Below are positions 1-10,129 of a DNA stretch of 64,000 nt, piece by piece. Position 1 is the stretch's first letter; the number at the start of each line of letters is the position of its first letter. Below the pieces are notes generated by a model. The model made no database searches and was not told the origin of the DNA. It saw nothing but the letters and a program-made list of their open reading frames with translations. The stretch is taken from positions 758-64,757 of the forward strand of contig CBDUGK010000007.1 of NCBI GenBank assembly GCA_965366875.1, given 5' to 3'. A program made the translations under genes and the position numbers. This stretch comes from an uncultured Desulfobulbaceae bacterium (GTDB lineage: Bacteria > Desulfobacterota > Desulfobulbia > Desulfobulbales > Desulfocapsaceae).

Positions 1-1124
1 CCCAGCCGCTGCTGAAAGGATTCGGCATCGCCTATAACCGCTCACCTATCGATCTCGCCGGTATCGATCATTCAATTGCTCAGGAGGAGCTGCGACGCAA
101 TGTGGAGAGCCACCTGCTCGAGGTGTCCCGCGCCTACTGGGGCCTCTACCTGGAACGCTCACTGCTGCTCCAGAAAGAGCAGCTCGCCAGGAAAAGCCTG
201 GAAATCTACAGACAGATGCAGCAGCGTACCGGCATGGATGTCCCGCCCAGCCTGCTGGCACGCTCCAAATCCCTGGTCAGCGCCCACGAGCTTGCCGCCA
301 TGCAGGCGGAATATGCGATGCTCAATGCCCAGTCCCGCATTCGAGCCCTGGTAAATGATCCCGAACTCATCTCCGCAGCCAGCCTGGAAATGATCACCAG
401 CCAGCTGCCGCAAAACACCCTGTTTGAAATTGATTTTGACCAGGCACTGCAGACCACCCTGAGCAATAGACCCGAAGTGGCTCAGGCGATAAAGCATATC
501 CAGTCTGCCTACCTCCGGCTTGAACGGTCTAAAAGCGAACTGCTGCCCGATCTCGATCTTTTTTTTCAGACCTATGTAAAGGGGCTCGAGGGTGATTACG
601 AATACAGCGACGCCTACTCCAACCAGTTTAATGATGGAGAGCCCAGCTATGTTACCGGTCTGCGCTTTGAATTTCCGCTTGGGAACAATGGTGCCGAAGC
701 CCGCAACCTCAGGAAAAAGCTGGAGATTCGGCAACTTCTGCACCAGCTTGACACCACCGTTGAAAACGTTCTGCTGGAAGCCCAGGTTTCCTATCGGGAA
801 CTTGAAAAGAACTACCGTTCCATGGTGCAGAGTTACCAGATCATGCTCTCTGATGATGAAGAGGTGAAAGCCCTTCTCTCCCGGGTTGATTATCTCCTGG
901 CCAACAGCGAGCCGTATGGTGATGTGTTATATCGGCTGATGGATGCCAGTGAGCGGTTGACCGACTCGGAAGAGCTGTTTGCCAAAAGCGAACTGACCTA
1001 TAATTACTCCCTCTATAACCTCCACCGGGCCATGGGAATCCTGGTCAGCACAAACAACATCACCTTCACCGAGGAAAAACCCGAAGATGGGGATACCTTG
1101 CCGGCAATCTATGTTCGTCAGTAA
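1..1124 (+). CDS. TolC-family outer-membrane efflux protein, 5' end outside window
   Basis: The frame of the listed 102..1124 ORF stays open back to nt 3, so the start lies upstream. Helical-repeat sequence of OMF type (VSRAYWGLYLERSLL, YNYSLYNLHRAMG). First gene of a HlyD operon. Confidence 0.8.
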   Translation, partial: QPLLKGFGIAYNRSPIDLAGIDHSIAQEELRRNVESHLLEVSRAYWGLYLERSLLLQKEQLARKSLEIYRQMQQRTGMDVPPSLLARSKSLVSAHELAAMQAEYAMLNAQSRIRALVNDPELISAASLEMITSQLPQNTLFEIDFDQALQTTLSNRPEVAQAIKHIQSAYLRLERSKSELLPDLDLFFQTYVKGLEGDYEYSDAYSNQFNDGEPSYVTGLRFEFPLGNNGAEARNLRKKLEIRQLLHQLDTTVENVLLEAQVSYRELEKNYRSMVQSYQIMLSDDEEVKALLSRVDYLLANSEPYGDVLYRLMDASERLTDSEELFAKSELTYNYSLYNLHRAMGILVSTNNITFTEEKPEDGDTLPAIYVRQ

Positions 1125-1974
1125 AACAGCTCGCTGCACCACGATCGGCACAACCAGGACTCCTGGTGCAGCGAGATTCTCTGCCGGTTTTTATCTGCTT
1201 ATCGCCGTTTCTTTTCTTTTTCGGGCGGAACAGGGTTTTTGCCAGACCTTTGACACGTTTCTTGAACCCAGCCAGATAGTCGACATCTCTTCACCGTTTC
1301 GAAACCGCATCACCGATATTCATGTCGGTATCGGTGATCGGGTCAAGGCCGGTCAGCTCCTTGCCGAACTGGACAGCCAGGTTCTCAGGGCAACGCTCGA
1401 TTCCGCTGAGACAGCGGCTTCGTTTCAGGGTCGTATCGACTCAGCAAAAGCCCTGGTCAGCATGCAGCAGGACCGCTATAAGATGCTGCAGGAACTTGAA
1501 AAGAGCGGCAACGCCCGTCCCCAGGAACTGGTGAAGGCTCACACCGATCTGGTCATGGCCCGCGCTCAACTGCAGAGCGCCCTGGATGACAGGACATTGA
1601 AAAAACATGAAGCCGGCATCATCCGCGCCCAGATAGAAGAGCGTAAACTGCGCAGTCCCGTTGACGGTGTTGTGGTGAAAATTTCCAGGCAGCAGGCGGA
1701 GTTAATCGGCGGCGGTGACGGGGAAGAATTTATGACCGTTGTCCAGCTCGACCCGCTGCTCGCCGTTTTTCATGTACCTCCTGACATTTCGAGGAACCTG
1801 CAGGAAGGGGCAGGAATCCCCCTGGAGAGCGGCGGAGCCAGGGTTACCGGCGAAATTGATTTTATCTCACCGGTCATCAATGCCCAGAGCGGTACCGTCG
1901 AGGTTCGTGTCACCATTACCAACCCGGATAACAAGCTGATAAGCGGCAGCCGCTGCACGTTCAGCAAACAGTAA
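1087..1974 (+). CDS. HlyD-family membrane fusion (periplasmic adaptor) protein, short form
   Basis: N-terminal TM (FYLLIAVSFLF). Lipoyl-like hairpin halves (ITDIHVGIGDRVKAGQLLAELD and SPVDGVVVKI) flank a coiled coil. Overlaps the TolC stop; alternative ATG at 1111. Confidence 0.8.
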   Translation: MGIPCRQSMFVSKTARCTTIGTTRTPGAARFSAGFYLLIAVSFLFRAEQGFCQTFDTFLEPSQIVDISSPFRNRITDIHVGIGDRVKAGQLLAELDSQVLRATLDSAETAASFQGRIDSAKALVSMQQDRYKMLQELEKSGNARPQELVKAHTDLVMARAQLQSALDDRTLKKHEAGIIRAQIEERKLRSPVDGVVVKISRQQAELIGGGDGEEFMTVVQLDPLLAVFHVPPDISRNLQEGAGIPLESGGARVTGEIDFISPVINAQSGTVEVRVTITNPDNKLISGSRCTFSKQ

Positions 1975-1993
1975 CTACACGGAGACAAATTCC

Positions 1994-2296
1994 ATGACAG
2001 ACGACACAAAAAAACAACAGCAGATCAAGGTTCGCTATAATGAAACATCGGCCCTCTATGCTTCCCAGTTTATTGTCAACACCAGCGGTGAAGACCTGAT
2101 TATAAATTTTTCCTCAGGCCCGATCACCGATCCAGCCGGCGGGGAATCCATCCTGCCTGTCCATACCCGGATGGCAATGACCATCAATGGTGCCAGACGC
2201 CTGCATAGCGTGCTGGAAAACATTCTGGGCAAACAGGGGGCTGATGCAGCAAAGATTCCTGCCGCTGCGCAGGCAAATCTCTCGGACGTCAACTAA
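1994..2296 (+). CDS. small DUF3467-like protein
   Basis: 100 aa, no signal peptide. YASQFIVNTSGEDLIINF and HTRMAMTINGARRLHSVLENIL fit my memory of the DUF3467 pattern. GGAGA lies 8 nt upstream of the ATG. Confidence 0.55.
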   Translation: MTDDTKKQQQIKVRYNETSALYASQFIVNTSGEDLIINFSSGPITDPAGGESILPVHTRMAMTINGARRLHSVLENILGKQGADAAKIPAAAQANLSDVN

Positions 2297-2311
2297 CGAC
2301 AACTCGTACTA

Positions 2312-4177
2312 TTGAGCGATACAGTGTCAACCCGCTCCACCCAGGGCAGCGCCGTCATCCGGCGCCCTGACATTCACCAGCTCTCCAGCCAGCTTCTCCG
2401 GCTGGCGGACCAGGCTGGTAATCGTCACCGGCTTGTCCTGGACTTCCTGCAGGCAGCCATCGGTCTGGTCAATGCCGCAGGGGTGATCTATTTTACCCGC
2501 AACCAGGGCGGTGGTCTTGCCGTCGAGCAGCAGCTGCTCTCCCGACAGGCCCTTTCCTGGTCTTCAGACTTAGTACAGTGCATGCAGCAGGACGCAGAGC
2601 GTGCCCTGACCAGCGGCCGGGCACAATTCAGTTCGCTTGAAGAATTCCCCGCCGCCCAGCTGCTCTCCTGCCCGGCAGGATATGAGCGCCAGCATACCGG
2701 TTGCCTGTCTTTTATTGTTCTCACAGGTGACCAGCCTGTCGAATCTTTTCTGGTGATCATTCAACTTCTGACCACCCTGCTCAACTCCTTTCTTGAAAGG
2801 AGTTCTCCCCCGGCCGGCAGCGACAGGGACCTGTTCCGACAGCTGGTCAGCCTTGTTGCCACTACTCTTGAATACCGCTACCAGCCGGAATCCATGTTGC
2901 AGCTCAACGCCCGGCTGCGTTCCTGGGCAGAGTGCGAGCAGGTGGCAATCGGCACCATCACAGCTTCCGGACGGATGATTCTGAGTTCGCTGTCTCACCT
3001 CACCTCTGTAGATCTGCGCAGCGAACAATCGCGGATCTTTACCAAAGTGCTCAATGAATGCGCCATTCAACCTGACATTCTCGTTTTCCCGGCAACCAGC
3101 GAGACCTTGGAACAGAGTTCACCTCTTTTTCAGGAGCTGCTGAACATCAGTTCAAACACTCAGGCTGTCGGACTTTCGCTCAGCGATTCGCATGGCACCA
3201 TGACAGGTGCGGTCATTTTTCTGTGGGACAAGCCGGAAAACCGACAGCGACTCATTTCATCCCTTGGTGCAGGCAGGAGCGTGCTGGCCTCCTGTCTTTC
3301 CGTCATGCAGGAAAAAGGCGGCACAGGTGTTTCCGCTGTCATGAAAAGCCGGTCAGCAGGCAAGACGCGCCGTTTCAGCAGATATCTGCTGCTGCTTGCG
3401 GTCATAGCGCTGCTGGGTGCAATCAGCATGCTGCCGCTGCCATTCCGCCTCAGTACGCCATGCGTTGTGCAGCCGGTTTCAACCAGGTTCGTGGTCGCCA
3501 GGTTCGATGGAATTCTCCAGGAAGTCCTGGTACAGCCCGGAGACGAGGTTCAGGACGGTGATACGCTGGCCATCCTCGATGGCCGGGAAAATGAAATTAC
3601 CCGGGCGGCGGTGACGGCAGAACGCAACAAGGCCCGGAAAATGCGGGATCATCATCTGGCGCTCGGCAATACTGCCGGGGCCCAGATTGCCAGACTCGAG
3701 GAACAGCGGCTCGAAGAGCAGCTCAGTTTGCTGCTCGAGCAGGAAAAACATCTCATCCTGCTCAGCCCGGTTGGCGGCATGGTGCTCTCCGGCGATCTGA
3801 AGAGGGCACTCGGCAGCCCGGTAAGCAAAGGCCAGAGTCTGTTTGAAGTGTCGCCATTAAACGTAATGATTGTTGAGCTTGCGGTGCGCGAAAACAATAT
3901 TGGCTATCTGCAGCCGGACATGGACGTACGGGTACGCTTCGACGCCTATCCCGAAGCCGCCTGGGTCGGGTCCATACAAAAGATCAACCCGAAATCAGTA
4001 ATCAGGGAGAATCGCAATGTTTTTATCGCCGAGCTCGAATTCGACAACCCGGACGGCAGACTCAGGCCCGGTATGCAGGGAAAAGCCGTGATCCAGGCCG
4101 GCTCCAGACCGCTTGGCTGGATTCTTTTTCATAAACCCTGGTATACCCTGCTGCAACTAAAGGATTTCTTCTTCTAA
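2312..4177 (+). CDS. HlyD-family adaptor with about 350-aa cytoplasmic N-terminal domain
   Basis: TM (YLLLLAVIALLGAISMLPL), then lipoyl-like halves (ARFDGILQEVLVQPGDEVQDGDTLAILD and SPVGGMVLS), coiled coil and barrel. N-terminal domain unassigned. TTG start at 2312 is uncertain (GTG 2324 is in frame). Confidence 0.75.
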   Translation: MSDTVSTRSTQGSAVIRRPDIHQLSSQLLRLADQAGNRHRLVLDFLQAAIGLVNAAGVIYFTRNQGGGLAVEQQLLSRQALSWSSDLVQCMQQDAERALTSGRAQFSSLEEFPAAQLLSCPAGYERQHTGCLSFIVLTGDQPVESFLVIIQLLTTLLNSFLERSSPPAGSDRDLFRQLVSLVATTLEYRYQPESMLQLNARLRSWAECEQVAIGTITASGRMILSSLSHLTSVDLRSEQSRIFTKVLNECAIQPDILVFPATSETLEQSSPLFQELLNISSNTQAVGLSLSDSHGTMTGAVIFLWDKPENRQRLISSLGAGRSVLASCLSVMQEKGGTGVSAVMKSRSAGKTRRFSRYLLLLAVIALLGAISMLPLPFRLSTPCVVQPVSTRFVVARFDGILQEVLVQPGDEVQDGDTLAILDGRENEITRAAVTAERNKARKMRDHHLALGNTAGAQIARLEEQRLEEQLSLLLEQEKHLILLSPVGGMVLSGDLKRALGSPVSKGQSLFEVSPLNVMIVELAVRENNIGYLQPDMDVRVRFDAYPEAAWVGSIQKINPKSVIRENRNVFIAELEFDNPDGRLRPGMQGKAVIQAGSRPLGWILFHKPWYTLLQLKDFFF

Positions 4178-4183
4178 ACCATT

Positions 4184-6343
4184 ATGGCCCACCCCGAATC
4201 ATCCCTGCCGAGACTCCGCTCCGAGCTCCGCTTCTCCCCGGTCAAGGAAGGCAACCGGATAGAGTACATCCTGGAAGACCCCGTTCGTAATACCTTTTAC
4301 CGGCTTGGCCTCGAGGAATATCTGTTTATCAGCAGGCTGAACCAGGCCTCCGGACTTGAGCAATTACTGGAGAGTGTCGCCCAGACCGGCAATACGCAAC
4401 TGAGCGCCGAGCAAGCCCAGGCTATCCTGAACTGGCTGGCAGCCAGGCAGCTCCTGCAGGTAGATGATGCCGCCCCCCTTGTTCAGGCACTGGAACAGGA
4501 AGAAAAACAGAAAAATGCACGGCACTTCAGCCGACTCAATATCATTACCATCAAGGTGCCACTGTTCAACCCTGACCCTCTGCTGAACTACCTGAGCCCC
4601 AAGTTTAACTGGCTGACCGGCAGGTGGTTTGCGGCACTCTGGCTGATCCTTGCCGCCTCGGCACTTACTGTGCTTTTTTCAAAATGGCAGGAGTTCAGCA
4701 GTCAGGCGATTGGTTTTTTTTCAGCCGGTAATGTGCTTTTTATCTGGCTCATCTGGTTTTTCCTCAAACTTTTTCATGAATTATTCCATGCCCTGGTCTG
4801 TCGCCGCTACGGCGGCAGAGTCTATGAGGCCGGCATCCTGTTTATTCTCTTTATTCCGCTGACCTATGTCAATGCCACATCATCATGGAATTTTCCTTCA
4901 AAATGGCAGCGCATTCATGTCGCCGTGGCCGGCATGTTCCTCGAACTCGGTATTGGCTGGGCGGCACTCCTGGTCTGGGCTGGACAGCCGAATACCACGA
5001 CGGGATTCATTGCCCATAACACGGTTATCATCGCTTCGGTCAGCTCCCTGCTCTTCAATGCCAATCCGCTCATGCGTTTTGACGGTTATTACGTCCTTTC
5101 TGACCTGATCGGCATACCTAATCTTTACAGCCGCGGTCTGCAGTTCATCAAGTCCGTCGGCGCACGCTGGTTTCTCGGTATCTCCTCTGCCGCTGTCTGG
5201 CAGAACGGTCCGAAATTATGGTTTATCAAGTTCTATGGTGTCGCCATTTATCTCTGGCGCCTCTTCATTCTTGTTTCCCTTGGCTATATCGCCAGCACCA
5301 TGGCCGGAGGCTTCGGCATCCTGGCAACGATCGGCGCTGCCGTTGTCTGGGTCGGCACACCGCTCTACCAGTTTTTCAAGCGTTTGCCGTTTTACCGGCA
5401 GCAGAATCCTCATGTCCTGCGCCACCTGCTGCTGCATCTGGTTATAACCCTGCTGGTCATCTTCGCCGGCGTTCGTTATACTAGTTGGGAGCAGAGAATT
5501 CAGGCTCCCGCAGTAGTTGAATACCAGCACCAGTATAGCGTACGGCCTGAAACCCGAGGCTTTGTCAGCATTGTCCACGTCACCACCGGCCAGCAGGTGC
5601 GGCAGGGAGACCTCCTGCTGACCCTGGAAAACGATGAACTGTCATACACAGCTCGTGATCTGCAGCTGCAGACTCGGCAACTGAAACTGGAAAGCCGCCT
5701 GGCCCAGTCCAACGGGGAAATAACCAAACTGCAGATCCTGCAGGAGCAGCAGCAGAATTTGTCAGGAAAACTGCAGGACCTTGAGGCGGACCTGAGAGCG
5801 TTCGAAGTCCATGCTCAGGGTGACGGTGTCGTCGTCGGCACCGGCCTGGATGCAATTGAGGGAACCTATCTTTTCAGGGGCCAGGAAGTTTTCTGGATCG
5901 TCAGCCCGGAACAGAAACAAATCTCGGCAAGCGCCTCCCAGGATGACATTGAACAGTTCCGGGCGCTGCTGAACCGGCCCCTGAAAATAGATATGCGGTC
6001 CGCAGGGCTCGGCACTTTTACCGGCACACTCAGGCAGGTTTCACCCAACGCAACCACCGAATTGATCCATCCGGCGCTTGGGGCTGTCTACGGAGGGCCG
6101 CTCGATGTCCGGCAGCAGTCTCTCGGTACTGTCGGGGAGGACATGGAGCAGCGCTATCGTTTTGAGTTGTTTACGCCGCGGTTCAGACTTGATGTTGAGC
6201 TGCCCGCAGAGCTGACTGAAAAAGTCAAAGACGGTCAACCGGCAACGCTGTACACGCGTGGTTCCAGAATTTCACTCGGCCAGATAATTGTCAATAAGGG
6301 GCGCGACTGGCTGCAGAACAAAAATTCCCTGCTGGACAGGTAG
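4184..6343 (+). CDS. M50 (site-2-protease-like) metalloprotease fused to a HlyD-type adaptor
   Basis: Multi-TM core with HELFH (nt 4775-4789) and NPLMRFDG (nt 5063-5086). C-terminal about 270 aa is HlyD-like (VSIVHVTTGQQVRQGDLLLTLEND, long coiled coil, barrel). 6-nt gap to the upstream gene. Confidence 0.8.
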   Translation: MAHPESSLPRLRSELRFSPVKEGNRIEYILEDPVRNTFYRLGLEEYLFISRLNQASGLEQLLESVAQTGNTQLSAEQAQAILNWLAARQLLQVDDAAPLVQALEQEEKQKNARHFSRLNIITIKVPLFNPDPLLNYLSPKFNWLTGRWFAALWLILAASALTVLFSKWQEFSSQAIGFFSAGNVLFIWLIWFFLKLFHELFHALVCRRYGGRVYEAGILFILFIPLTYVNATSSWNFPSKWQRIHVAVAGMFLELGIGWAALLVWAGQPNTTTGFIAHNTVIIASVSSLLFNANPLMRFDGYYVLSDLIGIPNLYSRGLQFIKSVGARWFLGISSAAVWQNGPKLWFIKFYGVAIYLWRLFILVSLGYIASTMAGGFGILATIGAAVVWVGTPLYQFFKRLPFYRQQNPHVLRHLLLHLVITLLVIFAGVRYTSWEQRIQAPAVVEYQHQYSVRPETRGFVSIVHVTTGQQVRQGDLLLTLENDELSYTARDLQLQTRQLKLESRLAQSNGEITKLQILQEQQQNLSGKLQDLEADLRAFEVHAQGDGVVVGTGLDAIEGTYLFRGQEVFWIVSPEQKQISASASQDDIEQFRALLNRPLKIDMRSAGLGTFTGTLRQVSPNATTELIHPALGAVYGGPLDVRQQSLGTVGEDMEQRYRFELFTPRFRLDVELPAELTEKVKDGQPATLYTRGSRISLGQIIVNKGRDWLQNKNSLLDR

Positions 6344-6409
6344 TCCAGCAGGGGAGTACGCTCTTCAATTACGGAAAAATTCTCGAAATCCCCACAGAGA
6401 AGACCTCTT

Positions 6410-7462
6410 TTACAAAGCGGCGATCACACGGTCAGTAAACGAAGTCGTTGTTTCCTTGCCGCCGAGATCAGGAGTCAAAAGCCCCTCTGAAGTAACTGTC
6501 TCAACGGCCTCCATCAGTGCATCACCGGCCGTTTTCTCACCAAGGAAATCAAGCATCATCTGAACCGACCAGAGTGTTGCAATCGGGTTCGCTATGCCTT
6601 TTCCGGCGATATCCGGGGCGGAACCATGAACCGGCTCAAACATTGAAGGATATTGTTTCGACACATTGATGTTGGCTGACGGCGCAATACCAATGCCGCC
6701 GGCGATCGCCGGGCCGAGATCGGAAAGGATATCGCCGAAGAGATTACTGCCGACAACAACGTCGAACCAGTCGGGATGCTGGACAAAATTGGCGGTAAGA
6801 ATGTCTATGTGAAACTGGTCACAGGTTAAATCGGGGTAAGCTGCGGTAACTGCTTTGAAGCGCTCGTCCCAGAACGGCATGGTGAAGCGGATGCCGTTTG
6901 ATTTGGTTGCCGAGGTAATATGCCTGGCCGGCCTTTTCTGGGCGAGATCGCAGGCGAACGTGAGTATCCGGTCGACTCCCGTCCTGGTAAAAATCGTTTC
7001 CTGAACCGCAAACTCCCGTTCGCTTCCCTCGAAGAGTCGCCCGCCAATTTCTGAATACTCGCCTTCTGTATTCTCCCTGACCACGATGAAATCTATATCG
7101 CTGCTGTCCCTGTTGGCGAGCGGTGAGGAAACCCCTTTCAGCAGCCTCACCGGCCTGAGATTAACATATTGATCGAACCGGCGTCTAATCGGCAGCAGCA
7201 GTTCCCAGAGCGAAACATGATCGGGGACAGCAGGGTCTCCGACAGCACCGAGCAGGATCGCATCAAAGGGTCTGATCTGCTCGAGCCCATCTTCCGGCAT
7301 CATTTTACCATGCTCACGATAGTATTCGCATGAATAAGGAAACTCTTTGTAGGAAACGGTGAAATTGAATTTTGAGGCCAGGACATCCAGAACCCTGACG
7401 CCCTCAGGTATTACTTCTCTGCCAATTCCATCACCCGGTATTAATGCTATTTTATAGCTCAT
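6410..7462 (-). CDS. tartrate dehydrogenase/decarboxylase-like enzyme (isocitrate/isopropylmalate dehydrogenase family)
   Basis: IALIPGDGIGREV N-terminus, GSNLFGDILSD, about 350 aa. Start moved to ATG 7462 (GGAG 6 nt upstream). Confidence 0.75.
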   Translation of the reverse strand: MSYKIALIPGDGIGREVIPEGVRVLDVLASKFNFTVSYKEFPYSCEYYREHGKMMPEDGLEQIRPFDAILLGAVGDPAVPDHVSLWELLLPIRRRFDQYVNLRPVRLLKGVSSPLANRDSSDIDFIVVRENTEGEYSEIGGRLFEGSEREFAVQETIFTRTGVDRILTFACDLAQKRPARHITSATKSNGIRFTMPFWDERFKAVTAAYPDLTCDQFHIDILTANFVQHPDWFDVVVGSNLFGDILSDLGPAIAGGIGIAPSANINVSKQYPSMFEPVHGSAPDIAGKGIANPIATLWSVQMMLDFLGEKTAGDALMEAVETVTSEGLLTPDLGGKETTTSFTDRVIAAL

Positions 7463-7606
7463 GGTCTGCTCCACTTCGTCTTAATTGATTTGTCTGCCGG
7501 TAGTTTCTTGCCATTCTCGGTTCAAACGTTCAAACACACGTGTCTTGTTACTACAATGAAATGATTGAAATATCAATACAACCCTGGAAAGGCAGCGGTG
7601 TCATCA

Positions 7607-8230
7607 CTATTCGCTAAACGGATCAACCGTCTGCCAGACAACGTTGTACCGCCCTGGAGTTATTGCAGCCATAAAGCCCGGCCGTTCATTCAATGTGTCT
7701 GCCGGCAGCTGGTGCTGCACCACAACCCAGCTTTCACCCTGGTAACTCAGCTGGGTCCTGTCCTTGTCAAAAATGTTCGTTATCCTGCAGCCGGCAAGAC
7801 CGGAGAGACCATGACCGGTGGCCTTCAACACCGCCTCCTTGGCCGTCCAGTAGCGGAAAAAAACCACAGGATCATACACCTGGTCCAGTTGCCACTCCGG
7901 CTCTGAGGCAACCTGGTTTTTCAGCTCGTCGGGGACGTCCCGTATCTCTTCAATATCGATGCCGACAGCATGGGGGGCGACAACTGCTGCGACACATCTG
8001 CCTGAATGGGACAGAGACCAGTGAACACCAGCGGTCGGACGGGGGATTCCTGATGCGTCTTTTTGGGGCACAAAAGGTTCAATGCTGCTTCGTTGAGCCG
8101 AACGCTCAAGAGCCTGCCGGGCATAGATGCTGAGCCTCTTGGTTTTCTCCAGGCTTGAAATTCCGGCGACAGCGGAGGGCAGCCTCATGATGACCGGATA
8201 GAGTGCCGCCCAGGTGATGTCACTCTTCAA
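7607..8230 (-). CDS. 4'-phosphopantetheinyl transferase (Sfp type)
   Basis: Motifs GIDIEEI and WTAKEAVLKATG. Confidence 0.8.
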   Translation of the reverse strand: MKSDITWAALYPVIMRLPSAVAGISSLEKTKRLSIYARQALERSAQRSSIEPFVPQKDASGIPRPTAGVHWSLSHSGRCVAAVVAPHAVGIDIEEIRDVPDELKNQVASEPEWQLDQVYDPVVFFRYWTAKEAVLKATGHGLSGLAGCRITNIFDKDRTQLSYQGESWVVVQHQLPADTLNERPGFMAAITPGRYNVVWQTVDPFSE

Positions 8231-8284: not shown

Positions 8285-10129
8285 TCAGAGCTTTTTCTCC
8301 ACGAGCTTGTCAAACACATAGGGAAGGCACTCTTCCTCTCTCATCGGCCTGCCGCTCAGCATCCGGTGCAGATCGAACCACTCCCTCCGATTGGCCGCAA
8401 CATAGGTATTGAGATCATGCATCTGGAGAAAATTCTCGGTCCGTTCGTCTATCTGCCTGCGGGCGGCATCGTAAAACCGCGGGAATCTTTTGATCAGGGC
8501 CTCGGCCCCGGCGATGTAATGTGACCATCTCCTGTCGTCGATGGCTATTTTCTCGATGCCATCCGTCTCTATCATCGTCTCGAATTCGGGGTTGTCAAAA
8601 AAGTCGATGAAAACGTCCATATAGAATTTGGTCATTTCCAGGACACTTGAGCCGAAAAATGAATTGAAGACGTCATCGTCAATATAGGCATCGGCCAGGT
8701 ACATCAGGTCCTTATCGACATAATTGTTGTTATACATCTCGGTGTAATCGCACATGCTGCGGACCACCGGCGCATTGCGGTGAAAGCCGATACAGTTGAT
8801 AACGATATCAGCCTCGATACGCCGGTCGTGATTGATGATCACGCCCTGTTCATAAAGCCCGGTAACGCTTCCGGACACGGTGTTCAGCTTGTTCAGGAAA
8901 TGAGCGATAAACCAGATGTCTGAAACACTGATGGTATGACCTTCATGCTTGATTTTGCCCATCCAGCACTCCGGCTGGGTTGCTCCGCTGCGGTCGTAGA
9001 GCTTTTTCCACAGCATCATATTCCTGATATTACTTTTTCTGTCGTGCTGAAAGTTCTCGTCATAAGGGGTGGCAAAATTGAGATAATCGATGATCTTCGG
9101 GCATACTGTGCCGTGCCGGCGGCAGACAACCGTTACGTGCTCTGCGCCATTTTCAAGGGCGGTACGACTGTTTTCGACGGCAAAGGCGCCCATACCGACA
9201 ATAACGACCCTTTTGCCCCGCCACTGGACATCGAGCGCTTCATCCGAAATACCCGAGGTGACGACGCCCCTGAAGAGGTGCTGATTTTCCCAGGTGACAA
9301 TGCGGGGGCTGCCGATCCGATCATTGACCGCGAGTATGATGCCTTTGCAGGCGATGGTTTTTGCCTTGTTGTTCCTGACCACGCTGACCCGGTACTGCCC
9401 CGCCCCTCCTTCGATCCGTTCCGCGCGAGTCCGTGTGTAGAGATGAGCGGATACCTCGGTGAAGAGCTGATGCAGATCCCTGAGGATCTCGGCAGTGGTG
9501 GAGTGATCCCGGTTCGCCCGGATCTTTTTGTCAAGCAGCCGGTACGCCCCTTCTGACGTGTTTACCTGTGAGGTGGCGTTGGCATATTTTGTCCAGATCC
9601 CCCCGGCGATGTCGCGCTCTTCAACCACACAAAACGACAATCCCTCCCTGGCCAGGCGATGGGCAGCGTAGAGGCCGGTAATTCCCGCCCCAACGACCAA
9701 TACATCGACTTGCTCCGGCAGATCCGTGCTGTTCCTGTTATCCAGATCGCCCTTGTCAAATGAAAATCGCTGTCGGCCATAGCGGTCAACCTGCGCAAAA
9801 ATATCAGCTGCCTCCGGCGAGTCCACCGGCACAATATCGAGGTGTGAACTTGCCAGGGCTGAAAAATCTCCGTCAACAACAAACAGCGCATGGGGATAAC
9901 AGGTTGACCTGATGGCCCGTAGTGAGGCGAGTACCTCGGAGACAAGTTGGGCTCGCTCCCCGGCGACAACATATACCTGGGGTGCATCACTGTACTGCCT
10001 GAGTCTGGCAACGACGGCGGCGCTGTCATCGCCGTTGACCGGGATGATGCGCTCAGCGGAAAGATCAATGGCGCTGAAGTTGACAATTCGTGGTTGGGAG
10101 AGCAGGGGGTTGACAATCGTTTCAGTCAC
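8285..10129 (-). CDS. FAD/NAD(P)-dependent monooxygenase (class B flavoprotein-like) with N-terminal extension
   Basis: VLVVGAGITGLYAA (FAD fold), VVIVGMGAFAVEN (second Rossmann), DIVINCIGF. The first about 150 aa have no motif I recognise. Confidence 0.7.
   Translation of the reverse strand: MTETIVNPLLSQPRIVNFSAIDLSAERIIPVNGDDSAAVVARLRQYSDAPQVYVVAGERAQLVSEVLASLRAIRSTCYPHALFVVDGDFSALASSHLDIVPVDSPEAADIFAQVDRYGRQRFSFDKGDLDNRNSTDLPEQVDVLVVGAGITGLYAAHRLAREGLSFCVVEERDIAGGIWTKYANATSQVNTSEGAYRLLDKKIRANRDHSTTAEILRDLHQLFTEVSAHLYTRTRAERIEGGAGQYRVSVVRNNKAKTIACKGIILAVNDRIGSPRIVTWENQHLFRGVVTSGISDEALDVQWRGKRVVIVGMGAFAVENSRTALENGAEHVTVVCRRHGTVCPKIIDYLNFATPYDENFQHDRKSNIRNMMLWKKLYDRSGATQPECWMGKIKHEGHTISVSDIWFIAHFLNKLNTVSGSVTGLYEQGVIINHDRRIEADIVINCIGFHRNAPVVRSMCDYTEMYNNNYVDKDLMYLADAYIDDDVFNSFFGSSVLEMTKFYMDVFIDFFDNPEFETMIETDGIEKIAIDDRRWSHYIAGAEALIKRFPRFYDAARRQIDERTENFLQMHDLNTYVAANRREWFDLHRMLSGRPMREEECLPYVFDKLVEKKL

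Follow-up and report, generated by a model that had tools for sequence, protein, structure and literature searches.

A TolC, adaptor and intramembrane protease gene cluster of an uncultured Desulfobulbaceae bacterium as a candidate export apparatus for giant LEPR-XLL proteins

The window studied here, a 64,000-nucleotide stretch of contig CBDUGK010000007.1 (GenBank assembly GCA_965366875.1, positions 758 to 64,757) from an uncultured Desulfobulbaceae bacterium, opens with five genes for a TolC-like outer-membrane factor, a periplasmic adaptor of the membrane-fusion-protein type (adaptor 1, MFP1), a small DUF3467-family protein, a second adaptor with a large cytoplasmic domain (adaptor 2, MFP2) and a fusion of an M50 intramembrane metalloprotease with a third adaptor. 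Our favoured explanation, held with moderate confidence, is that these genes encode an envelope-spanning export apparatus for a giant adhesin-like protein of immunoglobulin (Ig)-like repeats. Put more specifically, the best reading is a leader-dependent two-membrane apparatus dedicated to giant proteins that carry the LEPR-XLL domain at their N-terminus.

A wider proposal goes with it, which we hold as evenly balanced and only for its parts taken together. It states that the cluster represents a new type of diderm secretion system for LEPR-XLL giants, with the ABC transporter replaced by adaptor 2, often a truncated SecA, and an M50-adaptor fusion headed by a recognition element (RRE) of the kind found with ribosomally synthesized and post-translationally modified peptides (RiPPs); that LEPR-XLL would be a cleavable, Sec-independent secretion leader; and that the system would be found widely among Planctomycetota, Verrucomicrobiota, Desulfobulbales and other groups.

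Giant genes and their leader beside the cluster

The neighbourhood of the cluster was compared across 85 fetched loci of relatives (given L numbers), including the complete genome of Desulfomarina profundi (AP024086.1; L005). In all ten fully covered Desulfobulbales loci a co-directional giant gene lies immediately upstream of the ~600-aa TolC-like gene, and the order giant gene with C-terminal domain (CTD), TolC-like, MFP1, MFP2, M50-adaptor is the same in each. With one order shared by all ten, the arrangement is conserved and not a product of chance. The original prediction had placed an energising pump upstream of the window. That expectation failed: every full Desulfobulbales relative has the giant substrate gene in this position, and beyond it no transporter or ATPase lies upstream in L005 or in L086 (from the 377-kb contig that carries L002). 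A conventional type I secretion system (T1SS) ABC transporter or a DevCA-type pump with a known annotation, the arrangement against which the prediction had been set, was not found upstream.

The closest relative, a Desulfocapsaceae metagenome-assembled genome (MAG; L006), is collinear with window positions 1-7577 at 90.4% DNA identity, and the TolC-like gene matches L006 collinearly from its position 5818 onwards (90% DNA identity). In L006, the open reading frame (ORF) encoding the giant-gene CTD ends ~720 nt before the position that corresponds to window nucleotide 1. By this synteny, about 235 further TolC codons are expected to the left of the window, preceded by a giant gene whose end would lie some 0.7 kb from the window edge and whose start would lie about 7-13 kb beyond that. 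Its product is expected to begin with the pattern M(K/Q)K..K(R/K)HLLLEQLEERIFLDA.P and to close with a CTD of the pattern ADAFFM..GYEF..SH.

The giants are composed of SdrD_B, CarboxypepD_reg and CLIPPER (DUF11) Ig-like repeats, with visible portions of more than 1,300 to 4,257 aa; no HemolysinCabind (RTX) repeats occur in the last 1656 aa of the giant in L001, a relative of 85% identity. Those of the Desulfobulbales end, after a proline-rich linker, in a common CTD of ~180 aa that matches no database family. The CTD was considered as a universal secretion signal and rejected, being confined in an iterative search to Desulfobulbales, one Saprospiraceae locus and, in part, L065 and L081.

The opposite end of the giants is conserved far more widely. 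The tests for LEPR-XLL were made on the giant proteins of relatives, not on window sequence. The N-terminus of the D. profundi giant, MEQKRKKNLLLEQLEERIFLDANP, matched the LEPR-XLL model NF012209 at 17.4 bits (cut-off 17). In three further Desulfobulbales N-termini (P0128-P0130, of which P0129 lies on the L002 contig and P0128 is named 'LEPR-XLL domain-containing protein' by NCBI) the leader runs on without a break into the first repeat domain, and because of this the split giant ORF of D. profundi most likely reflects a frameshift.

A strict leader pattern, LE.R.[LMVIFAT][LMFY][DSGNTA][AGS], was searched in the six-frame ORFs of the 85 fetched loci (1.15 million aa). It returned 27 matches, all of them in large ORFs that adjoin a cluster, no further than 70 aa from the start, and each in a different locus. 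Addition of two variant ORFs (M for L, and V), of which one is from an isolate, Stieleria marina K23_9, gave 29 ORFs in 28 loci; a LEPR-XLL giant gene is thereby the direct neighbour of the cluster in 28 of the 85 loci. Between leader ORF and nearest core gene the median distance is 355 nt, with 22 of the 29 ORFs within 500 nt; the leader ORFs are typically either divergent from the TolC-like gene or placed directly after the M50-adaptor gene. Their consensus reads (R)xLxLExLE[DE]R[VI][LM][FLMY][DS]AxP[LV]A, and the proline at +10 is kept in 29 of 30 leaders although it stands outside the search pattern. No hydrophobic h-region was found before or after the motif, so the leader is not a Sec or lipoprotein signal.

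On the other side of the cluster, the neighbours 3' of the M50-adaptor gene differ in every locus, and the operon therefore ends after that gene.

The protease-adaptor fusion and its partner proteins

The ORF listing and translations confirmed five co-directional plus-strand genes at window positions 3-6343 (Table 1). Together with Pfam and NCBIfam they bear out the gene composition given in the original prediction, including the DUF3467 protein, adaptor 2 with its large cytoplasmic domain and the fusion of M50 protease and adaptor, as well as its statement that no pump lies in 1-6343, where no ABC, RND or MFS domain was detected. The spacing, described there as overlaps or gaps under 20 nt, holds for the gaps (19, 15 and 6 nt), whereas a start of adaptor 1 at the ATG of 1087 makes its gene overlap the TolC-like gene by 38 nt, this start codon being uncertain. 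In Pfam, three of the proteins carry HlyD_D23/HlyD_3 domains.

Table 1. Features of the five-gene cluster in the window
Feature	Position	Strand	Basis and remarks
TolC-like outer-membrane factor	3..1124	+	5'-truncated, open at left edge; C-terminal 373 aa present; Pfam OEP 2e-18
Adaptor 1 (MFP1), 295 aa	1087..1974	+	HlyD_D23 2.5e-17; RND_mfp 1.7e-34
DUF3467-family protein, 100 aa	1994..2296	+	PF11950 8.9e-6, 26.1 bits (cut-off 25)
Adaptor 2 (MFP2), 621 aa	2312..4177	+	HlyD_D23 8e-19 at aa 394-588
Adaptor 2, cytoplasmic N-terminal domain, aa 1-357	2312..3382	+	Fold without assignment
Adaptor 2, transmembrane helix aa 358-376 and periplasmic HlyD-type adaptor	3383..4177	+	HlyD_D23 8e-19; type_I_hlyD 3.9e-18
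M50-adaptor fusion, 719 aa	4184..6343	+	Peptidase_M50 1.7e-5 at aa 192-294; HlyD_D23 4.5e-12 at aa 436-623
Fusion, RRE-like winged-helix domain, aa ~10-95	4211..4468	+	AF2 and Foldseek; predicted cytoplasmic
Fusion, M50 intramembrane metalloprotease core, 7 transmembrane spans	4574..5479	+	NCBIfam, Pfam, invariant motifs, topology
Fusion, periplasmic adaptor domain and C-terminal helix	5483..6343	+	HlyD_D23 4.5e-12; Foldseek
GC-rich hairpin, 11-bp stem, 8 G-C pairs	6327..6353	.	Terminator-like scan, pattern match only

The fusion protein carries both catalytic motifs of an M50 protease, HExxH at aa 198-202 (nt 4775-4789) and NxxPxxxxDG at aa 292-301 (nt 5057-5086), and residues H198, E199, H202, N292, P295, D300 and G301 are invariant among 25 homologues of 40-85% identity. 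In the AlphaFold model the motifs are placed in transmembrane helix 2 and at the end of helix 4; hydrophobicity and model together predict seven spans with the N-terminus inside and the C-terminus outside, and both motifs near the cytoplasmic face. The nearest NCBIfam model is daptide_HExxH (NF041824; aa 35-388, 1.9e-42, 145.7 bits against a cut-off of 300), followed by YydH/LiaK (NF058609; 2e-5, 24.4 bits against 225), while Pfam Peptidase_M50 falls just under its gathering score (24.7 against 27.2 bits). By these scores the core is related to the daptide and YydH-LiaK families of RiPP leader peptidases without being a member of either.

The model of the whole fusion (mean pLDDT 80.5) predicts a β3-α3 module at aa 16-87, a long helix, the membrane core at aa 131-432 and a complete adaptor with an α-hairpin at aa 484-538 (helices 484-510 and 513-538), a lipoyl and a β-barrel part. 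For the adaptor domain, Foldseek returned MacA (3fpp) as the best match at 3e-13, then AcrA, MexA and EmrA. The N-terminal module has strands at 16-22, 25-32 and 37-41 and helices at 43-50, 58-68 and 75-87 (AF2), and the first 118 aa modelled alone reached a pLDDT of 78.7, with ~85-90 over aa 11-90. Its top Foldseek matches are leader-bound RREs of TbiB1 (5v1v/5v1u, E = 5e-3 to 8e-3; rmsd 2.7-3.0 Å over ~87 residues, TM-score 0.69-0.74), and further matches are the lasso B1 protein 6jx3 and the RRE parts of TglHI (TglI), SuiB, CteB and SkfB. This likeness was detected neither by Pfam at E = 10 nor by a PDB profile search. From the modelled fold, the N-domain is probably an RRE of the PqqD-like type.

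An RRE-like fold placed before an M50 core akin to RiPP leader peptidases, on the one hand, and a neighbouring giant protein with the conserved N-terminal LEPR-XLL leader in relatives, on the other, both support the cleavage-coupled export of a protein that the original prediction had suggested. The same domains could also be taken to form a RiPP or bacteriocin module, in which the RRE and protease would mature a small peptide for export by the adaptors and TolC, the giant being unrelated or coincidental. The RRE fold is a hallmark of RiPPs, the M50 core is most like the daptide and YydH/LiaK leader peptidases, and weak NHLP-type HlyD matches point the same way. We nevertheless regard this as very unlikely, given that neither small-precursor nor tailoring-enzyme genes recur in the operons of the 85 loci, that in 22 of 29 cases, from several phyla, the cluster lies immediately next to the giant LEPR-XLL gene, and that many clusters embed a SecA-like translocase with a preprotein clamp.

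M50 proteases are known classically for regulated intramembrane proteolysis, and this role leads to another possibility: the fusion could cleave, as a site-2 protease, an anti-sigma factor or another membrane protein, with TolC and the adaptors serving small-molecule efflux by a pump supplied in trans. Two genes that would suit it stand before the giant LEPR-XLL gene of D. profundi (L005:1-2507), one for an extracytoplasmic function (ECF) sigma factor and one for a membrane protein of TPR/anti-sigma-like type; a secreted protein of 276 aa, acidic and His/Ser-rich, is encoded there as well. This set is not kept in L086, however, where unrelated metabolic genes take its place; Pfam and NCBIfam revealed no PDZ domain and no RseP-type match in the fusion protein; and the adaptor fusion, the RRE-like domain and the conserved substrate leader would be left unexplained. 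Of all the readings considered this is the least credible, and we come close to dismissing it.

The export apparatus that we favour would include the proteins of the other four genes. The TolC-like protein, whose full-length relatives have ~600-660 aa, is divergent (TIGR01844 27.5 bits against a cut-off of 225). Adaptor 1 is an ordinary-looking periplasmic adaptor (RND_mfp 119 bits, above the cut-off of 94.9) whose hydrophobic N-terminal segment (aa 27-45) is a signal or an anchor and whose periplasmic part has the fold of a membrane-fusion protein; its gene adjoins MFP2 in 38 of 41 full loci. The adaptor 2 gene is found directly upstream of the M50-adaptor gene in 41/41 full loci outside Thiotrichales. 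Its product is anchored by a single predicted transmembrane helix (hydrophobicity 2.46 at aa 358-376), and the preceding cytoplasmic domain (aa 1-357) has no Pfam match even at E = 10 and no significant PDB profile match; homologous N-domains occur across phyla, but are divergent. A GAF-like assignment of this domain was rejected for want of a Pfam match, the best PDB profile match of that type being a phytochrome-sensor chain at E = 0.94.

The DUF3467 protein is soluble, having neither transmembrane segment nor signal peptide, and its gene is present in nine of the ten full Desulfobulbales loci and in L031, L052, L059, L063 and L071. A PDB profile search gave no match. We also rejected a role as SecB-like chaperone, since hhalign against E. 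coli SecB gave a probability of 0.3%. Homologues from several phyla end in a conserved LPK[IV][QK]-like tail that could be a docking peptide; the window copy deviates and ends in ...NLSDVN.

The large conserved cytoplasmic domain of adaptor 2 also bears on a retention and release function, in which the giant would be tethered at the inner membrane through its leader on the RRE and M50 parts, having left the cell by the TolC/adaptor conduit or another route. Cleavage by the M50 protease would be its regulated release, similar to the control of LapA by LapG and LapD, and the sensor-like cytoplasmic domain of adaptor 2 would control it. The protease has its active site on the cytoplasmic side, the side on which the N-terminus of a tethered giant would be; GGDEF and PilZ genes lie downstream in L004; and the Desulfobulbales CTD could serve as a C-terminal signal of T1SS type. 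Against this, the universal feature is the N-terminal leader and not the lineage-specific CTD, which planctomycete giants lack; the protease has its closest relatives among processing leader peptidases; a motor of SecA type works from N to C; and the five window proteins show no LapG- or LapD-like domain in Pfam or NCBIfam. We consider retention and release unlikely, though it deserves to be kept in mind.

Distribution, candidate motor and proposed mechanism

With one genome per GTDB species, at least 585 loci encode relatives of the fusion protein, and the best 80 of them belong to Desulfobulbales, Planctomycetota (many, including Pirellulaceae, Planctomycetaceae, Brocadiia and Uabimicrobium), Verrucomicrobiota, Thiotrichales and Saprospiraceae. 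An exhaustive search with aa 1-432 yielded 3,010 clusters at 50% identity (E <= 1e-30). Nearly all of the best 150 have a length of ~700-780 aa and are therefore adaptor fusions. Adaptor 1, adaptor 2 and M50-adaptor genes follow one another in this order almost without exception, and the TolC-like gene lies either upstream or downstream.

In 25 loci (Planctomycetota, Verrucomicrobiota, Brocadiia, Uabimicrobium) a SecA paralogue of ~630-720 aa is encoded between the TolC-like and adaptor 1 genes. It matches Pfam SecA_DEAD (1e-78 to 1e-100), SecA_PP_bind and P-loop_SecA, scores 513 bits against a cut-off of 800, and aligns to SecA residues ~14-650, so that both nucleotide-binding domains (NBD1, NBD2) and the preprotein cross-linking domain (PPXD) are kept while the helical wing domain (HWD), two-helix finger and C-tail are gone. 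The Walker A motif GEGKT is intact in 24 of the 25 proteins and the DE[AV]D box is present in most. No SecY-like gene recurs in the operons of the fetched loci. The paralogue is absent in cis from a 15-member planctomycete clade, from two smaller clades and from the whole Desulfobulbales clade, and neither a SecA-like nor an ABC-exporter gene was found anywhere in the 64-kb window. Two MAGs each carry one locus with and one without the SecA-like gene, which would allow supply in trans within those genomes.

A conventional T1SS whose ABC transporter is encoded elsewhere, with the M50-adaptor and adaptor 2 as accessories for leader trimming or quality control, would account for TolC and HlyD-type adaptors, the hallmark of that system, and for the Desulfobulbales type having no ATPase in cis. 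In L054 an HlyB-type ABC half-transporter (ABC_membrane and ABC_tran; L054:5862-7751) occupies the slot before adaptor 1 that elsewhere holds the SecA-like gene. L054 is, however, the only one of the 85 loci where an ABC transporter adjoins the cluster, and the recurrent partner is a different ATPase, the SecA-like one. No ABC exporter was found in any of the ten full Desulfobulbales loci, the 38 kb of L086 and L002 holding only an unrelated importer. The substrates, moreover, have no RTX/HemolysinCabind repeats, and their conserved signal is N-terminal. This explanation appears quite improbable to us. No other gene family, including RND, MFS and MacB transporters, recurs in the operons of the 85 loci.

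The mechanism that we propose for a leader-dependent export apparatus is as follows. In the cytoplasm, the RRE-like domain would bind the N-terminal leader of the unfolded giant protein, and the M50 site, facing the cytoplasmic leaflet, would cut the leader off, as its closest relatives do for RiPP precursors. The polypeptide would be threaded N-terminus first through an inner-membrane assembly of oligomeric M50-adaptor and adaptor 2, and would then enter a ring of mixed adaptors that docks onto the TolC-like trimer, with the Ig-like repeats folding outside the cell. The SecA-like ATPase would be the motor where present. In the Desulfobulbales type, with no motor in cis, it may come in trans or from the housekeeping SecA, and the ~180-aa CTD may hold the protein at the cell surface.

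Several points weigh against an export apparatus of this kind. All the evidence is of gene neighbourhood and prediction, and the giant gene itself lies outside the window, its upstream presence following from synteny. No inner-membrane channel can be pointed to, and no ATPase is present in cis across the 38 kb of L086 and L002 or in ~15 planctomycete loci. The M50 core lies under the curated cut-offs of every named family, and the RRE assignment relies on modest Foldseek E-values (5e-3) without sequence support. Four Thiotrichales homologues stand alone, with none of the other cluster genes around them. Adaptors bind TolC through an RLS motif (RxxxLxxxxxxS) at the tip of the hairpin (PMC3391258), and this canonical tip motif is conserved in none of the three adaptors: MFP1 and MFP2 have no match, and the single match in the window, at aa 498 of the fusion protein, is not kept in 86 homologues, as far as the alignment allows.

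The solitary homologues just mentioned (L020, L024, L026 and L034; Beggiatoa and Ca. Venteria) are full-length M50-adaptor proteins of ~35% identity, and the neighbours in L024 include a GT2 glycosyltransferase and a P-type ATPase. Multiple copies were also seen: in L016 a second, oppositely oriented set of adaptor 1, adaptor 2 and M50-adaptor genes stands beside the first (L016:14440-19632, minus strand), in L076 two SecA-like genes flank one cluster (L076:12470-14527), and one Mariniblastus MAG contig has two separate loci (L044, L050).

Known secretion systems and minor observations

Giant-adhesin T1SSs (LapA/LapBCE, SiiE/SiiCDF, MpIBP) resemble the cluster in having a TolC-family duct and HlyD-type adaptors beside the gene for a giant repetitive adhesin, of Ca-binding type in those systems, and presumably in one-step export across both membranes. 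The cluster differs by the missing HlyB-type ABC transporter, by three different adaptors instead of one, with one of them fused to an RRE-like domain and an M50 protease, by an N-terminal LEPR-XLL leader in place of a C-terminal signal with RTX (GGxGxD) repeats, and by the SecA paralogue as the recurrent ATPase of relatives. It fails the definition of a T1SS (ABC transporter, C-terminal/RTX signal) and the test for an RND, MFS or MacB pump.

The peptidase-containing ABC transporters (PCATs) that, together with their adaptor and TolC, export for example colicin V and bacteriocins likewise have a leader-recognising protease built into the exporter, a likeness that suggests leader removal coupled to export. 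In the cluster, by contrast, an intramembrane M50 enzyme placed after a probable RRE stands where PCATs have a C39 cysteine protease of the cytoplasm, its fusion partner is an adaptor instead of an ABC transporter, and the proposed cargo has 2,000 to over 4,000 aa and is thus no peptide. With the M50 leader peptidases of RiPP pathways the fusion shares its best match over aa 35-388, intact HExxH and NxxPxxxxDG motifs and a predicted N-terminal fold of leader-binding type, but it carries in addition a C-terminal periplasmic adaptor of ~290 aa and lacks the biosynthetic context of RiPPs.

TriABC-OpmH combines two paralogous adaptors with one outer-membrane factor and an RND pump. Like the cluster, it has more than one paralogous membrane-fusion protein per outer-membrane factor, whereas the cluster has three adaptors and no RND, ABC or MFS component. 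The rule of one adaptor per pump, on which the original prediction had drawn, is accordingly too strict, although three paralogous adaptors are still unusual. Accessory Sec systems (SecA2/SecY2), which export giant serine-rich adhesins of Gram-positive bacteria, are similar to the relatives in Planctomycetota and Verrucomicrobiota through a dedicated SecA paralogue beside a giant adhesin and an atypical N-terminal signal. Here, in contrast, neither SecY2 nor Asp proteins occur, the SecA paralogue is truncated (~630-720 aa), the cells are diderm with a TolC/adaptor conduit, and the lineage of the window has no SecA-like gene in cis. The logic of the mechanism is thus borrowed from PCATs and accessory Sec, while the hardware differs from both.

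In full-text searches, which left much subscription literature outside their reach, no description of an M50-adaptor fusion, of a function for LEPR-XLL or of a SecA/TolC/adaptor system was found, and those papers in which LEPR-XLL appears do no more than name it. As of June 2026, none of the curated NCBIfam models covers any component, those of a planctomycete locus included.

If the proposal is right, LEPR-XLL, catalogued on thousands of giant bacterial proteins and never explained, gains a function, and proteins have a route across two membranes that relies on TolC and adaptors and involves none of the three known classes of pump. Both M50 proteases and domains of RRE type, mainly known from signalling and from peptide natural products, would have been recruited to a protein exporter, and a SecA paralogue would work outside the Sec channel. 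The export of giant proteins in Planctomycetes and in sulfate-reducing or cable-bacteria relatives would be explained; these proteins are likely to be adhesins with a part in forming biofilms, aggregates and contacts between cells. The mature giant protein would start just after the leader, and its surface display would depend on the protease of the cluster.

Some relatives carry additional genes at the cluster. An MltF-like lytic transglycosylase (SBP_bac_3 and SLT) is encoded between the TolC-like and adaptor 1 genes at L004:5773-7245, a Desulfobulbales-type locus without DUF3467; enzymes that remodel peptidoglycan typically accompany machines that span the envelope. A ydbH-ynbE-ydbL-like trio (AsmA-like YdbH, Lipoprotein_19, DUF1318) follows the M50-adaptor gene at L003:12195-15232, and YdbH-like homologues follow it at L009:12244-14745 and L011:12157-14166. 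In L001, a B12-binding radical SAM gene lies ~3.5 kb 3' of the M50-adaptor gene (L001:15696-16970); it is absent from the window and the other loci and probably stands outside the system.

In the window, the gene after the cluster is convergent, as the original prediction had it, but ends at 7474 and not at 7462; it runs from 6410 on the minus strand and encodes an isopropylmalate/isocitrate dehydrogenase homologue (Iso_dh 8e-91). The hairpin of Table 1 overlaps the stop codon of the M50-adaptor gene and lies between these convergent genes, and to judge from its sequence it is a possible bidirectional terminator marking the end of the operon. The remaining 57 kb contain no exporter ATPase, no second copy of a component and no LEPR-type protein, and an anti-phage defence role was rejected because PADLOC gave no match. 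Beyond the dehydrogenase gene lie minus-strand genes for a 4'-phosphopantetheinyl transferase (7607-8230) and a 614-aa FAD/NAD(P) oxidoreductase (8285-10129); homologues of the oxidoreductase region also occur in L006 at another position, and these genes are apparently unrelated to the cluster.

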